Below are positions 5,614 to 10,066 of a stretch of DNA of 24,941 bases, one piece after another (the first letter of the stretch is position 1; each line of letters opens with the position of its first letter). The notes under the pieces are model-generated. The model was not told where the DNA came from and made no database searches. It saw only the letters and a program-made list of their open reading frames with translations. The position numbers and the translations under genes were made by a program. Source of the DNA: Nitrospirota bacterium (GTDB lineage Bacteria > Nitrospirota > UBA9217). Where the stretch lies: positions 1 through 24,941 of the forward strand of contig JBBIHD010000011.1 in NCBI GenBank assembly GCA_037447195.1, read 5' to 3'.

Positions 5614-6171
5614 TTAGTCAGCGTAGGCGCCCAGGGCGTTGAAATTGTAAGGCAGGCCGTCGATCTTCCAGCCGTTCCGGGTCCGGTAGCCCTTTGCATC
5701 GGCGCCGCCCTCGAATCCGTTTACCATATTCATGACACGGTAGCCCAGCGGCTCAAGAATATTCGCGGCTGCCACGCTGCGCGCGCCGCTGCGGCACATG
5801 AGGATCAAAACCACGTTCTCCTTCACGGTGCCGAAAAGTTCGTTGATCTCGTTCACAAAGGAAGGATTCACGATGAACTGCTTCTTCCAGTCGATCTGGT
5901 AGGCCACGTTGAAGATCTTCAGGTCGAGCCCCTTGCCGTCGCCCGCCCTGTTCACGCCCGGGTGGCCGACCCAGCGCCACTCTTCGGGCGTGCGCACGTC
6001 GACAATGTAATAGACCGTAGCGCTGTCATAAGCGATGGCTGCCGTGGAACCGTTCATGACAAGCTCATAGGCCTGTGCTGTCGAGACGTTTTCGTAGGCT
6101 GCGGCCGGCATGGCCGCTGCAAAGGTAAAGAGGGCTGCAAAACAGACCATCAAAACAGTAGATTTTTTCAT
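5614..6171 (-). CDS. Exported single-domain rhodanese (sulfurtransferase)
   Basis: Sec signal MKKSTVLMVCFAALFTFAAAMPAAA; IVDVRTPEEW..GHP; active-site loop CRSGARS; GFEG...GWKIDGLP; RBS AGGAG. Confidence 0.9.
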   Translation of the reverse strand: MKKSTVLMVCFAALFTFAAAMPAAAYENVSTAQAYELVMNGSTAAIAYDSATVYYIVDVRTPEEWRWVGHPGVNRAGDGKGLDLKIFNVAYQIDWKKQFIVNPSFVNEINELFGTVKENVVLILMCRSGARSVAAANILEPLGYRVMNMVNGFEGGADAKGYRTRNGWKIDGLPYNFNALGAYAD

Positions 6172-6585
6172 GTGCGTTTTCTCCTATTATAGGGTGCGTT
6201 AAGTGTTGGTTACCGGTTAACTGCAAGAGATCCATCCTTGAAGACATGCTGCAACGTAACAAATGATGATGGCCTTCTTCAGACATCACCTCCCCTTGTC
6301 GATATGATGATTATGGAAGTTGTGTTTACTGGAATCGGCCCTAATGCGTTAGTACAAAAGTAGCAATTAGTTGCTTGTCTGTCAACTACAATTATAATCG
6401 GCATGCGCAAAAAATACATGTCTGCAAAATGATATAAAAACAGATAGTTGATGAACCATTCCGGATCGGCATGGCAATTTTAGATGAATACTTCTTCCGC
6501 AATAGTCAGAGCTTCGGCTAGTCTGGTGATGGATAAAAATTAAACGATCGTTTGTGATGGGGGGGGTTGCCTGGCAACCACGGGT

Positions 6586-7218
6586 CTATTTCAGCTTGCC
6601 ATATCGCTCCGCCTCTGCTCGAGATCTCTCATAATTAGGCGAGTCTCCGGTAGCCTGGTAAACCTCTGCCAGATGACCATAGGCCTCAGAGAGGTATTCC
6701 GGCCGGTCCTGAGGAAGGGTCCTTACAGACTCTTCGAGCGCCTCTAACGCTTCACTGATCCGCCCTTGGCGGTAAAGAACCACGCCGAGCGTGTCAAGGT
6801 AGTAAGGCCGCTGCTCCGGAGTGCGCCGTATCGCTTCCCTGGCAAGCTGTTCAGCTTTCCTCAGTTGATCTCCCTGTTCGAGATACACCCATGCAAGATT
6901 GTTATAGCTGTTCCCGTTCCCGGGATCCAGGGATATGGCTTTGAGATAGGCCTTTTCAGCCTCTTTATGTGCTCCTGTGCGGAAGGACAGGTCGCCTATC
7001 ATGAGCCAGGTGAGCGGGCTGTTGCTGCCGCCTCTGACTGCAGCGCGGTATTGCTGCAGCGCTAACTGCAGTTTGCCCTGCGACTCATAGACCTGCCCCA
7101 GGCGGACATGCTCTTCCGCCGTAAGCGGATCATTCAGAACGATGATCCTCGGGAGCGAGCAGCTGGTGGCAGCAGCCAGTGAGGTCAGGATCAGAATATG
7201 CAGAATGAATTTTGTCAT
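6586..7218 (-). CDS. TPR-repeat lipoprotein
   Basis: Signal with lipobox-like AATSC. TPR helices: LGQVYESQGKLQLALQQYRAA, IGDLSFRTG..EAEKAYLKAISLDP, YNNLAWVY, YLDTLGVVLYRQG. Confidence 0.85.
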   Translation of the reverse strand: MTKFILHILILTSLAAATSCSLPRIIVLNDPLTAEEHVRLGQVYESQGKLQLALQQYRAAVRGGSNSPLTWLMIGDLSFRTGAHKEAEKAYLKAISLDPGNGNSYNNLAWVYLEQGDQLRKAEQLAREAIRRTPEQRPYYLDTLGVVLYRQGRISEALEALEESVRTLPQDRPEYLSEAYGHLAEVYQATGDSPNYERSRAEAERYGKLK

Positions 7219-7264
7219 GCTATATCATATCTGGAAAGGACAGAAAAGTCGCCAGGCTGCGGCA

Positions 7265-7900
7265 TTATCCGGCACCCTGCGCCGCAACAGGAGCGCGTGC
7301 CGGTGTAGGGTGCACTACAAGCATCCAGTTGCCGGTACGGCCCCAGGATTTTTGAAAGCTATCATAGGACATCAGCCGGTTCCGTGTAACGCCGTCATGC
7401 ATGATCATGACACGGTTGACATCGTCAAAGCCGATCGCGACCACGTAATGGGGCCGCCGGTAGAGGCCGCTGCCCAGGTCGAGCAGGCAGATGACCGGCC
7501 GACCGCTACGGATCTCAGCGTGCAGTCGCTCAAGGGTGCCCGCTGCGGCTTCGGTAGAAAATCCCGACGACCGGGCGAAATTTTCCATGTCAGGAGGAAG
7601 GGTTCCCCCGAGGGCCGGCGTCATGATGCGCGACCCGATCTCGTCAAGCGGGACGACGGCGCCATAAAATGCCAGGACGCCGGAAAGGGCGGCCGGACCG
7701 CAGTCGTCCGCACCCTGGCGCACAAAGGGCACGCCGCTGATATAGTGTCCGCGGGCATCGAGGCCCGGCGGCAATGAAGACAAGTCCCGAGGCGCGCATC
7801 CCACAGCCAGGAGCGTTGCAGCAACGATAATGATGAACAAAAAAAAACCGCAAACAGCCCCTTGTCTGTTTGCGGACCAACTCGTTTCCAGTGCGGCCAT
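7265..7900 (-). CDS. Stand-alone C39-like cysteine peptidase, lipoprotein (PA2778-like)
   Basis: Lipobox LAVGC; VPFVRQGADDCGPAAL (Gln and catalytic Cys), HYVVAIGFD (His), MHDG (Asp). Its ATG overlaps the upstream TAA (TAATG). Confidence 0.85.
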   Translation of the reverse strand: MAALETSWSANRQGAVCGFFLFIIIVAATLLAVGCAPRDLSSLPPGLDARGHYISGVPFVRQGADDCGPAALSGVLAFYGAVVPLDEIGSRIMTPALGGTLPPDMENFARSSGFSTEAAAGTLERLHAEIRSGRPVICLLDLGSGLYRRPHYVVAIGFDDVNRVMIMHDGVTRNRLMSYDSFQKSWGRTGNWMLVVHPTPARAPVAAQGAG

Positions 7901-8325
7901 TATCTGCGCTTCACCTCAATGCGGCCTTCAAGCAGATAGATAAGCAGCACAACAAGCAGTGCGATGATGAGCAGTCCGACAACGGCTCCCACGGCATCGC
8001 CGCCGGCCTGGAGCGAGTCCAGGTTCGATGCCAGGTGATGAAGTTGTTCATCAGAAAGACTGTTCAACTTCGCCGCGGCCTCGTCGGCCGAAAGCCCGTA
8101 GTCCATGAGGCGCTGCTGGATCACCTTGGATTCGAGCACCGTCTGAACCTTGCCCAGGTCCGCGATCCGCTCTTGCGACGACACACCCGTGGCCGCTGCG
8201 CCCTGCGGATCCACGGCCAGGTACATGGCCTCTGCCGGACCGGCAAAGGTCGAGATCACGAGCAGGGCGGCTGCGAGGTACACTGCCAATGGTTTGGCAT
8301 AGAAACGCTTCAGCATAGGGTTCAT
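7900..8325 (-). CDS. PA2779-like protein, paralog B (signal peptide, helical domain, AGG, C-terminal TM helix)
   Basis: RBS AAGGAGG; signal ending GPAEA; QRLMDYGLS..LSDEQLHHLASNLDSLQAGG then a strongly hydrophobic helix and basic tail. The family name is from recall. Confidence 0.8.
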   Translation of the reverse strand: MNPMLKRFYAKPLAVYLAAALLVISTFAGPAEAMYLAVDPQGAAATGVSSQERIADLGKVQTVLESKVIQQRLMDYGLSADEAAAKLNSLSDEQLHHLASNLDSLQAGGDAVGAVVGLLIIALLVVLLIYLLEGRIEVKRR

Positions 8326-8360
8326 AACGGGAAACCTCCTTTTTGATGGAAGCAGCGCGT

Positions 8361-8747
8361 TTATTTTCTGATGATGACCTGGTGGTCTGTCGCCTGCAGC
8401 ACGACGATAACAACGATCGCGACAAGCAGCAGGAAGATCACTGCTCCAATGCCGTCGCCGCCTGCCTGGAGCGAATCCATGTTTGCAGCAAGCTGATGAA
8501 TCTGCTGGTCGGAAAGGCTGTTGATCTTCAGCAGGGCCTCTTCGGCAGAAAGGCCGAGATCCATGAGGCGTTGCGAAACGAGCGAGGATTCGAGGGCGGA
8601 CTGCACCGCAGCAAGGTCTTCAGCGCGGCTGGTCCGGGTCGGTTCGACGGGCAGGAACATTGCCCAGCCCTGGGCGGGCAGGGCCAGCAGAAAGACCGCC
8701 ATGGCGAGGTAGAGTGAAAGGCCTTTTACCGCAAAGCGCTGCAGCAT
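8361..8747 (-). CDS. PA2779-like protein, paralog A
   Basis: Start re-called to MLQRF (8747) behind AAGGAG; signal ending QGWA; QRLMDLGLS..LSDQQIHQLAANMDSLQAGG then a hydrophobic helix; 128 aa. Confidence 0.8.
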   Translation of the reverse strand: MLQRFAVKGLSLYLAMAVFLLALPAQGWAMFLPVEPTRTSRAEDLAAVQSALESSLVSQRLMDLGLSAEEALLKINSLSDQQIHQLAANMDSLQAGGDGIGAVIFLLLVAIVVIVVLQATDHQVIIRK

Positions 8748-8784
8748 GGGACAGCTCCTTTCGGGGACCGGCAAAACTGCCGGC

Positions 8785-9342
8785 TCAAACGGTCATGATC
8801 TCTTTTTCCTTGTGCGCGAGCAGTTCATCGATCTTCTTTATGTGCTCGTCGGTGCTCTTCTGGATCTCGTCCTGCAGCTTCTTCGTCTCATCTTCGGAGA
8901 AGTGCTCTTCCTTCGAGCGTTTTTTGATCTCTTCGTTGATGTCCCGGCGGATATTCCGGACAGCCACCCGGGAATCCTCGGCCAGCTTCTTTGCGTGCTT
9001 CACGATCTGCATCCGCCGTTCTTCCGTCAGGGGCGGTATGGCCAGCCTGATGAGCTTGCCGTCGTTGTTCGGCGTGAGCCCCACATCGGACTTCAGGAGC
9101 GCTTTCTCGATCTCGCCGATCATCTTTCCTTCCCAGGGCTGGATCGTGATCATGCGCGGGTCAGGCACGGCGAGGTTCGCCACCTGGTTGAGCGGCGTTG
9201 GCGTGCCGTAATAGTCGACGGTGATCCCGTCGAGGATGCCAAGGGACGCCCTGCCCGTCCGCACCGCGGCGAACTCCCTTCGCAGGGTTTCCAGGCCCTT
9301 GTTCATTTTCTCTTCGGCTTTCTTCTTTATTTCATGAGCCAT
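8785..9342 (-). CDS. frr: Ribosome recycling factor
   Basis: Start re-called to MAHEIKKK (9342) behind GGGAGG; [35 protein letters not shown]. Confidence 0.97.
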
Positions 9343-10066
9343 AGTTCCTCCCGGCGACGATCGTCCCCACCTGTTCGCCCAGCGCCAGCCGCTTGATATT
9401 GCCGGGAACGGTGAGGTTGAACACGATGATGGGAAGTTCATTGTCCATGCAGAGCGAAATGGCCGTTGCGTCCATGACCTTCAGGTCCTTCTGCAGAACG
9501 TCGAGGTAGGTGAGGCGGTCGTACTTGACGGCCGAGGGGTCCTTCACCGGATCGGCGCTGTAGACGCCGTCGACTTTAGTGGCTTTCATGATCACTTCAG
9601 CGCCGATCTCCATGGCGCGGAGCGCAGCGGCAGTGTCGGTGGTGAAGTAGGGATTGCCTGTGCCGGCGGCAAAGATCACGATGCGCTTCTTCTCTAGATG
9701 CCGCACGGCCCGCCGCCGGATATAGGGTTCGGCGAGCTCGCGCATCTCGATGGCCGACTGCACCCGTGTCTTTACACCCTTGTTCTCCAGCACGTTCTGC
9801 AGGGCCAGTGAATTCAGCACGGTTGCCAGCATGCCCATGTAGTCGGCGCTCGCCCGCTCCATGCCCTTGGCCGTGGCTGCGAGCCCCCGGAATATGTTGC
9901 CGCCGCCGATGACGATGGCGGTCTCGATGCCCAGGTCGTAGATCTCCTTCACCTGGGACGCGATGGAATCGAGCATGGCATAGTCTATGCCGTACTCCTG
10001 CTCGCCCATGAGGGCCTCGCCAGAGAGCTTGAGCAGTATGCGTTTCCGGGACGGTCGTGAGGTCAT
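9332..10066 (-). CDS. pyrH: Uridylate kinase
   Basis: [59 protein letters not shown]. Confidence 0.98.

Follow-up and report, generated by a model that had tools for sequence, protein, structure and literature searches.

A PA2779-family protein pair and a putatively exported C39 peptidase form a candidate protease-substrate module in a Nitrospirota genome

What does a Gly-Gly pair do when it stands directly before the C-terminal transmembrane (TM) helix of a small exported protein, next to a gene for a C39 peptidase? The question is raised by a four-gene module in a 24,941-nucleotide stretch of DNA from a Nitrospirota bacterium (lineage UBA9217; assembly GCA_037447195.1, contig JBBIHD010000011.1), referred to below as the window. 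On the minus strand, following tsf, pyrH, and frr, the module comprises two paralogous PA2779-family genes (paralogs A and B), a gene for a C39 cysteine-peptidase lipoprotein, and a gene for a TPR lipoprotein (Table 1). A prediction made earlier from the sequence (the original prediction) had offered two answers: the periplasmic domain is a long leader whose product is a membrane peptide, or Gly-Gly is a site at which the membrane anchor is shed. We find that the four genes are best explained as a dedicated protease-substrate module of the already catalogued PA2779/PA2778 type. We propose that the C39 lipoprotein, with its TPR partner, cleaves the PA2779 proteins after Gly-Gly at the outer face of the inner membrane, a mechanism to which we give about an even chance of being correct.

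Both paralogs exceed the curated cut-offs of the two models of the PA2779 family (40 bits for NF033919 and 27 bits for PF20332, or DUF6627). They have a common layout of signal peptide, three-helix periplasmic domain, the motif L-Q-A-G-G followed by D, one TM helix, and a short basic tail, and they are the only proteins in this genome with this C-terminal signature. Paralogs A and B are 50% identical overall. The original prediction had described a nearly identical block from SLSD to Gly-Gly alongside diverged signal peptides and linkers, and this description holds, with 18 of 23 residues identical over the block NSLSD..LQAGGD. The sequences that it quoted, its placement of the Gly-Gly codons (8457-8462 in A, 7999-8004 in B), and its counts of 31 and 32 residues after them are likewise all correct. 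Because the N-terminal hydrophobic stretch ends in a conserved A-x-A site, with A33 of paralog B at the signal-peptidase -1 position (Ala in 129 of 135 family representatives), it is almost certainly a cleaved Sec signal.

Table 1. Features of the module and of its pyrH-frr side in the window (positions count from the first nucleotide of the window)
Feature	Position	Strand	Basis
frr	8785-9441	minus	RRF family
pyrH-frr side of the module	8748-10066		
Paralog A, PA2779-family, 128 aa from ATG 8747	8361..8747	minus	NF033919 80.3 bits; PF20332 42.5 bits
Predicted Sec signal peptide of A, residues 1-29, ending A-Q-G-W-A	8661..8747	minus	sequence; cleavage predicted
Helix 3 of A, leader-like amphipathic, LSDQQIHQLAANMDSLQA, P side of Gly-Gly	8463..8516	minus	homology with helix 92-106 of the B model
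Gly-Gly codons of A, proposed scissile site (cut after second Gly)	8457..8462	minus	family conservation
Post-GG segment of A, 31 aa: D-G-I-G, TM helix, tail DHQVIIRK	8364..8456	minus	
Paralog B, PA2779-family, 141 aa	7900..8325	minus	NF033919 83.2 bits; PF20332 35 bits
Predicted Sec signal peptide of B, residues 1-33, ending P-A-E-A	8227..8325	minus	conserved P28, A-x-A 31-33
Helix 3 of B, residues 90-107, leader-like amphipathic	8005..8058	minus	alignment and structure model
Gly-Gly codons of B (G108, G109), proposed scissile site	7999..8004	minus	model helix break at 107-108
Post-GG segment of B, 32 aa: D-A-V-G, TM helix, tail EGRIEVKRR	7903..7998	minus	
C39 cysteine-peptidase lipoprotein, 211 aa	7265..7900	minus	PF03412 42 bits; PF13529 40.5 bits
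Lipobox Cys35 of the C39 gene	7796-7798	minus	
Catalytic Cys67 of the C39 gene	7700-7702	minus	
Catalytic His151 of the C39 gene	7448-7450	minus	
Hairpin (stem-loop 7875-7848) and T9 run (7847-7839)	7839..7875	minus	terminator scan
TPR lipoprotein, 210 aa	6586..7218	minus	NF033920 positions 156-254, 43.5 bits; TPR families

An AlphaFold2 model of paralog B built on a 136-sequence alignment (mean predicted local distance difference test, pLDDT, of 81.5; an earlier model from 16 close sequences was poor, at 58.9) has helices at residues 3-27 (the signal), 50-75, 80-89, 92-106, and 109-133 (the TM helix). The three periplasmic helices are modeled at pLDDT values of 87-95, and the linker after the signal helix is disordered. 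The last of the three, helix 3, carries the conserved columns L90, S91, D92, H96, L98, A99, L102, and L105 (paralog B numbering) and breaks at residues 107-108 (A-G), with pLDDT falling to 69 in the block of residues 101-110. The model found no match at E ≤0.001 in a fold search of the PDB and only PA2779-family entries in a fold search of AlphaFold clusters, and the PA2779 profile matched sequences of solved structures at chance level only. As modeled, the periplasmic domain is a small helical bundle without a recognized fold relative.

To what extent is the Gly-Gly pair itself conserved? A profile search over 1.84 billion cluster representatives gave 1941 matches at E ≤0.001 (counted as 50%-identity clusters), and the conservation alignment has 136 rows, that is, 134 near-full-length representatives among the best 150 plus paralogs A and B. 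The 62 loci that we collected from reference genomes of Nitrospirota, Thermodesulfobacteriota, Spirochaetota, and others were found with QAGGD as one of two search patterns and are biased for Gly-Gly, and conservation of the pair was therefore judged on the profile search and the 136-row alignment. In the alignment, position -2 is Gly in 116 and Ala in 18 of 135 rows, position -1 is Gly in 122, Ala in 6, and Ser in 5 of 136 rows, and position +1 is Asp in 98 of 136 rows. The pair is thus conserved across the family, as the original prediction had supposed, in the form of two positions that accept only Gly, Ala, or Ser. Across the loci the motif occurs as GG, GA (most A-type copies), GS, and AG (the Nitrospira clade). 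Gly-Ser is tolerated at C39 cleavage sites. GG and GA are named as possible C39 sites in the work on FapD, a catalytically active, periplasmic C39 enzyme from the Fap amyloid system of Pseudomonas (PMC5557850).

The remainder of the conservation pattern departs from what had been anticipated, namely that the AGG and LSDEQ residues would be the most conserved columns and the helix after them variable. When the 141 columns are ordered by information content, the two glycines come 8th and 10th; L73, E65, G77, A33, L64, and A99 stand above both, and H96 stands between them. The TM segment holds 2.46 bits per column and the tail 2.11, against 2.38 for the periplasmic domain, and the helix after Gly-Gly is therefore conserved like the periplasmic domain rather than variable.

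What follows the motif falls into a few types. Among related loci, B-type copies end in ...Y-L-L-E/Q-G-R-I-E-V-K and A-type copies in ...L-E/Q-A-T-G-H-x-V-I-V-R, with the pattern T-G-H-x-V-I-V-R of the tail kept among A-type orthologues; rarer copies have Gly/Tyr-rich tails or tails of the form 'a-p...a-s-a'. A maximum-likelihood tree of 94 homologues from the 62 loci places paralog A in an A-type clade (31 rows, support 99/95), which takes in all first-gene copies of one Nitrospirota lineage, and paralog B in its sister, a B-type clade (36 rows, support 100/99) that takes in all peptidase-adjacent copies. Because the two types form separate sister clades, the tree indicates that the duplication is old, with both copies kept in fixed order in about 24 genomes. 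The suggestion that the tandem genes make two different products is right only to the extent that A and B are two separately conserved lineages; its other half, a duplication with newly diversified peptides, is not borne out, as the duplication is not recent and an old, fixed pair is the opposite of diversifying bacteriocin cores. In several copies (L017, L029, L038, L040, and the middle copy of L013) the residues N-terminal of the presumed cut (the P side), LQAG-G/S, are retained where position +1, the TM helix, and the tail (the P' side) have diverged. Such a pattern would be expected if the enzyme recognized the P side alone.

Extra PA2779 paralogs with LQAG(G/S) were located at L017:4001-4444, L029:3953-4444, L013:3083-3508, L030:3548-3970, L038:3971-4420, and L040:4004-4408. 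They have a shorter TM helix and divergent ends, some with Gly/Tyr/His-rich tails and others with 'a-p...a-s-a' tails, and several of them are remote from any C39 gene, although their genomes have a full cassette at another site.

The presence of a helix and a Gly-Gly pair beside a C39 gene invites comparison with double-glycine leaders. The original prediction had called the motif reversed, but helix 3 sits on the P side of Gly-Gly, as in classical leaders; the unusual feature is that the pair lies near the C-terminus of a Sec-exported protein and hence in the periplasm. Substrates of peptidase-containing ATP-binding cassette (ABC) transporters (PCATs) dock on the peptidase through a two-turn helix at -10 to -4; positions -7 and -12 are leucines, and the residue at -4 confers specificity (PMC6959990). 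The hydrophobic positions of helix 3 are -5, -8, -12 (L98), and -15, and the residues at -7 and -4 are D103 and Q106 in paralog B; across the family, -7 is Asp and -4 is Gln or variable. The LSDEQL block spans -20 to -15, not -12 to -7, which puts it 8 residues (two helical turns) out of register with LSxxELxxIxGG. With C39 substrates of the ComA/PCAT1/LahT type, the PA2779 proteins share small residues before the presumed cut and a P-side helix with a hydrophobic residue at -12, next to a peptidase of the same C39 family with aligned Gln, Cys, and His. They differ from PCAT and AMS leaders in that the enzyme is a predicted exported lipoprotein without an ABC transporter, the presumed substrate is Sec-exported with a periplasmic site near its C-terminus, and a membrane anchor, not secreted cargo, follows the site. 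As far as the sequences tell, the likeness to leaders goes no further than two small residues at the end of an amphipathic helix. Given the polar residues at -4 and -7, the shifted register, and a Sec signal instead of a cytoplasmic precursor, membership in the double-glycine leader family was rejected.

In its strict form, the leader explanation takes the periplasmic domain for a long Nif11/NHLP-like leader and the post-GG peptides for membrane-active products resembling bacteriocins or ribosomally synthesized and post-translationally modified peptides. The NHLP and Nif11 families do include long leaders, and the P-side amphipathic helix before Gly-Gly, the C39 neighbor, and the differing post-GG sequences of A and B would all be accommodated. 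However, none of the NHLP, Nif11, and bacteriocin leader models of NCBIfam matches the paralogs (at E 0.01 for the full proteins and at E 10 for their C-terminal parts), and the proteins carry Sec signal peptides of their own with a conserved A-x-A site. No PCAT or other ABC exporter and no second C39 domain was found in the genome (86% complete), and no modification enzyme in the cassette. The LSxxEL-like block is out of register, the -4 and -7 residues are polar, and the supposed cores are conserved TM helices rather than hypervariable peptides. Further points against it are that pyrH-frr precedes the module in 15 related loci and that a family member is expressed constitutively and at a very high level in Pseudomonas stutzeri (PMC10155442). 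The proposed membership in the bacteriocin, Nif11, or NHLP leaders thus fails, and we regard the strict leader explanation as very improbable.

Is the neighboring C39 protein a plausible processing enzyme? Its gene matches Peptidase_C39 and C39_2 and, with 116 bits, positions 2-151 of the 255 positions of NF033920 (PA2778), a model of a C39-TPR fusion protein with a curated cut-off of 150 bits. Neither the C39 nor the TPR gene (43.5 bits) passes this cut-off alone, because the gene is split in two; together they cover the model. Judged by these matches, the two genes appear to be a split PA2778-type fusion. Both begin with lipoprotein-type signals (L-A-V-G-C in the C39 protein and A-A-T-S-C in the TPR protein). 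Among 26 C39 orthologues from several phyla, neither Cys67 nor His151 varies, and the lipobox Cys hardly does. In an alignment with the peptidase domain of ComA, Cys67, His151, and Asp169 all match, as does a Gln six residues before Cys67. The peptidase, which is the sole C39 domain in this genome, therefore looks both active and exported. A C39 peptidase can work outside the cytoplasm, as FapD, a stand-alone periplasmic C39 peptidase that needs its active-site Cys, demonstrates (PMC5557850). The comparison with FapD was made at the level of the C39 fold; FapD is part of an amyloid secretion operon and has neither a TPR partner nor a PA2779-like neighbor. A complex prediction for the C39 domain with residues 49-124 of paralog B gave a score of 0.00 in a run without controls and counts neither way.

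In the Nitrospira clade (L034-L037, L039, and L043), the motif I-I-P-A-G before D replaces L-Q-A-G-G before D, and in the C39 protein Asp replaces the Gln six residues before the catalytic Cys. The two changes may be correlated, but they amount to one phylogenetic event.

Gene order and distribution connect the PA2779 proteins with the C39 peptidase. The order PA2779 (1 to 3 copies), C39, TPR is found in about 47 of the 62 loci, and the remaining loci are contig ends or orphan PA2779 copies in genomes with a full cassette elsewhere; in most of the 62 loci the TPR gene follows the C39 gene. We then searched an even sample of 201 Nitrospirota genomes with the PA2779 model and a C39 alignment. 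PA2779 genes were detected in 78 genomes and C39 genes in 79, all 78 PA2779 genomes also have C39, and 122 genomes have neither gene, with a distribution that is patchy down to the genus level. The only sampled genome with C39 (G200, C2:546266-546796) but no PA2779 match at E 1e-5 may contain a diverged substrate or may have lost the PA2779 gene. In each of the 10 genomes sampled from one family (f16), a single PA2779 gene and a single C39 gene are separated by hundreds of kilobases. The genes are unlinked yet occur together, and the co-occurrence is therefore independent of linkage. Because the sampled genomes share ancestry, their counts are not independent of each other; even so, the association is strong, as both genes are repeatedly present together or absent together across 26 families.

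In an example from the same family (G062), the PA2779 gene lies at C1:369550-369891 and the C39 gene at C1:1251621-1252064. The C39 match in this family begins near model position 38, and the N-terminal part differs.

Two observations concern individual loci. In L032, an orphan A and B pair is located just after a gene for a large Lnb_N/DUF7840/DUF7843 protein (L032:1417-3372) and 1.3 kb before a rhomboid protease gene (L032:5687-6385), a proximity that may be a coincidence. Four loci labelled Betaproteobacteria bacterium MAG281 (L024, L032, L038, and L042) have PA2779 genes that nest inside Nitrospirota clades, and the MAG281 bin is probably mislabelled or mixed.

An RNA feature within the module may bear on the relative amounts of the proteins. 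A hairpin with a GC-rich stem of 10 bp, followed by a T run, lies about 50 nt past the paralog B stop, among the signal-peptide codons of the C39 gene. A hairpin with a run of T5-T9 is found at the same offset in 16 related Nitrospirota loci besides the window (L003-L012, L014, L016, L018, L022, L023, and L031; free energies of -11 to -27 kcal/mol). It was not seen in loci of the Nitrospira clade or of Thermodesulfobacteriota. In the alignment fold, 6 of 10 pairs have changed on both sides. Because the position of the hairpin is conserved while its stem sequences differ and the amino acids that it encodes are not conserved among C39 orthologues, selection appears to act on the RNA. We suggest that the hairpin is probably a leaky intrinsic terminator, which would keep the peptidase scarce relative to the small proteins. 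P. stutzeri DSM4166 has 39 genes that rank in the top 3% of expression under all four conditions tested (two media, two growth phases), and one of them belongs to the PA2779 family (PMC10155442).

Of the two answers that the original prediction offered, shedding of the anchor at Gly-Gly is the better supported, as a motif of two small residues is predicted to lie at a helix break beside the membrane, in proteins encoded next to an exported C39 peptidase. The domain architecture, the conserved motif and hairpin, the intact catalytic residues, and the linkage and co-occurrence of the genes are observed; we infer the export and topology of the proteins, the membrane that holds the lipoproteins, the cleavage itself, and the functional fragment, and propose the following course of events. 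Sec would export each PA2779 paralog, and the signal peptide would be removed after A-x-A. The mature protein would remain anchored to the inner membrane through its one C-terminal helix, its N-terminus facing outward and its basic tail lying in the cytoplasm, leaving a three-helix domain of roughly 55 residues in the periplasm and the L-Q-A-G-G end of helix 3 at the membrane surface. The C39 lipoprotein, aided by the TPR lipoprotein, would dock on the amphipathic helix 3 and cut after the second small residue (G-G, G-A, or G-S), releasing about 75 residues as a soluble periplasmic domain and leaving a peptide of about 32 residues in the membrane. The leaky terminator inside the peptidase gene would leave the substrate in large excess over the enzyme. 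Because the anchor and tail are conserved, the membrane part presumably matters too.

Several points weigh against such a cut. A Gly-Gly pair where a helix meets the membrane might have no more than a structural role. The hydrophobic residues of helix 3 at -5, -8, -12, and -15 may simply pack the interior of the three-helix bundle and not serve for docking, and they are shifted by one relative to -4 and -7 of PCAT substrates. The TM helix and tail are conserved as the domain is, which would not be expected of an anchor that is merely discarded. The third catalytic residue of the peptidase, present here as Asp169, is not conserved across the family. Should sorting take the lipoproteins to the outer membrane, a linker of about 20 residues would be too short to reach a site at the inner membrane. 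Finally, a literature search found no experiment showing cleavage of PA2779-family proteins.

Some of these points are shared with a different explanation, in which the PA2779 proteins remain uncut, Gly-Gly is a structural hinge or packing motif, and the proteins serve as an inner-membrane anchor, receptor, regulator, or inhibitor of the C39 and TPR proteins, whose real substrates lie elsewhere in the envelope. Linkage and co-occurrence fit such a partner equally well as a substrate, and the variable third catalytic residue, the several domain columns that exceed Gly-Gly in conservation, and the conserved TM helix and cytoplasmic tail are all in its favor. Moreover, A-type and B-type proteins each keep their own TM helix and tail across about 24 genomes, which suggests that the anchor itself is functional, for instance in pairing of A with B. 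A purely structural role is harder to reconcile with two positions that tolerate only Gly, Ala, or Ser, in forms (GG and GA) named for C39 (PMC5557850), and with a P side that persists where the P' side diverges. As neither the catalytic Cys nor the catalytic His varies among the 26 orthologues, the enzyme acts on something, and no other candidate substrate travels with it. An excess of the small proteins set by the terminator would also fit a substrate and its enzyme better than a 1:1 complex. We consider an uncut partner a rather unlikely, if serious, alternative to cleavage after Gly-Gly.

The three-part C-terminus allows one more explanation. A motif, a TM helix, and basic residues are the layout of sortase, exosortase, and rhombosortase signals, and the PA2779 C-terminus shares it, together with a dedicated enzyme, with the LPXTG/sortase, GlyGly-CTERM/rhombosortase, and PEP-CTERM/exosortase systems. 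Gly-Gly, TM helix, and basic tail could accordingly form a sorting signal, with the C39 enzyme making a thioester with the C-terminal Gly and transferring the domain to an amine of peptidoglycan or lipid, to yield an abundant, covalently attached envelope protein. Papain-like Cys peptidases form acyl-enzyme intermediates, the substrate is apparently made in excess over the enzyme, and the very high expression in P. stutzeri (PMC10155442) is as for structural envelope proteins. Against these stand the nature of the enzyme, which is a papain-like lipoprotein and not a sortase or a polytopic membrane protease, and the confinement of the signal to a single domain family, with two paralogs in this genome, unlike general sorting signals. 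Moreover, hydrolysis is the only activity known for C39 enzymes. The GlyGly-CTERM model did not match the C-terminal parts at E 10, and the best match to the rhombosortase model TIGR03902 in this genome (21.3 bits against a cut-off of 84) is at the level of generic rhomboids, as in control genomes; GlyGly-CTERM/rhombosortase sorting was rejected on these grounds. Transfer of this kind thus seems most improbable. Hardly more probable is a broader conjecture, according to which the C39 lipoprotein is a sortase-like transpeptidase of diderm bacteria that joins the domain via its C-terminal Gly to peptidoglycan or an envelope lipid, or, in a milder version, the 32-residue membrane peptide is the true product and regulates an inner-membrane machine.

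The surroundings of the module are in part conserved. Similar to the window, pyrH-frr directly precedes the module in 15 other Nitrospirota loci (L003-L005, L007-L012, L018, L020, L022, L026, L027, and L031), and attachment to this housekeeping operon is therefore a lineage-wide feature. The frr stop and the paralog A ATG are separated by 37 nt (8748-8784), in which a terminator scan of positions 6000-9600 detected no terminator-like site. The start of paralog A is most likely ATG 8747, given an AGGAG about 7 nt upstream and the agreement of homologue starts; TTG 8774 is less likely. The paralog B stop overlaps the start of the C39 gene (TAATG). The next gene, 415 nt beyond the TPR gene, encodes a rhodanese-domain protein (5614-6171), and its position beside the module is not conserved in related loci.

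How does the module relate to the pair after which the family is named? The PA2779/PA2778 pair of Pseudomonas aeruginosa has the same order of small protein and peptidase, is covered by the same family models, and has the same layout of signal peptide, domain, motif of two small residues, and TM helix. In contrast, the peptidase and TPR parts, fused in Pseudomonas PA2778, are two separate lipoprotein genes here, the small protein is duplicated into the old A and B lineages, and the module follows pyrH-frr. PA2779 has been called a hypothetical protein in P. aeruginosa (PMC3985676), and PA2778 is listed only as a putative enzyme near a hit of transposon-directed insertion-site sequencing (bioRxiv 10.1101/733030). 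Our literature search returned no paper on DUF6627 or on a periplasmic C39 and TPR system, and only passing mentions of PA2779/PA2778. The module is an ordinary split and duplicated member of a family already catalogued by NCBIfam and Pfam, and not a new kind of system.

The family is nonetheless a large one, with 1941 clusters at 50% identity, a presence in about 39% of the sampled Nitrospirota genomes, a namesake in Pseudomonas, and one member among the most highly expressed genes of P. stutzeri (PMC10155442). To its description the window adds a motif restricted to Gly, Ala, and Ser, a conserved anchor, an old, fixed A and B pair, and a putative internal terminator that would set the ratio of substrate to enzyme. 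Should sortase-like transfer prove true, the module would represent a new way of tethering envelope layers. If, as we propose, the PA2779 proteins are cut at Gly-Gly, the C39 lipoprotein would become the first member of its peptidase family for which a periplasmic substrate is defined, and the pair would offer a simple model, made up of two proteins, of how the Gram-negative envelope carries out juxtamembrane processing.

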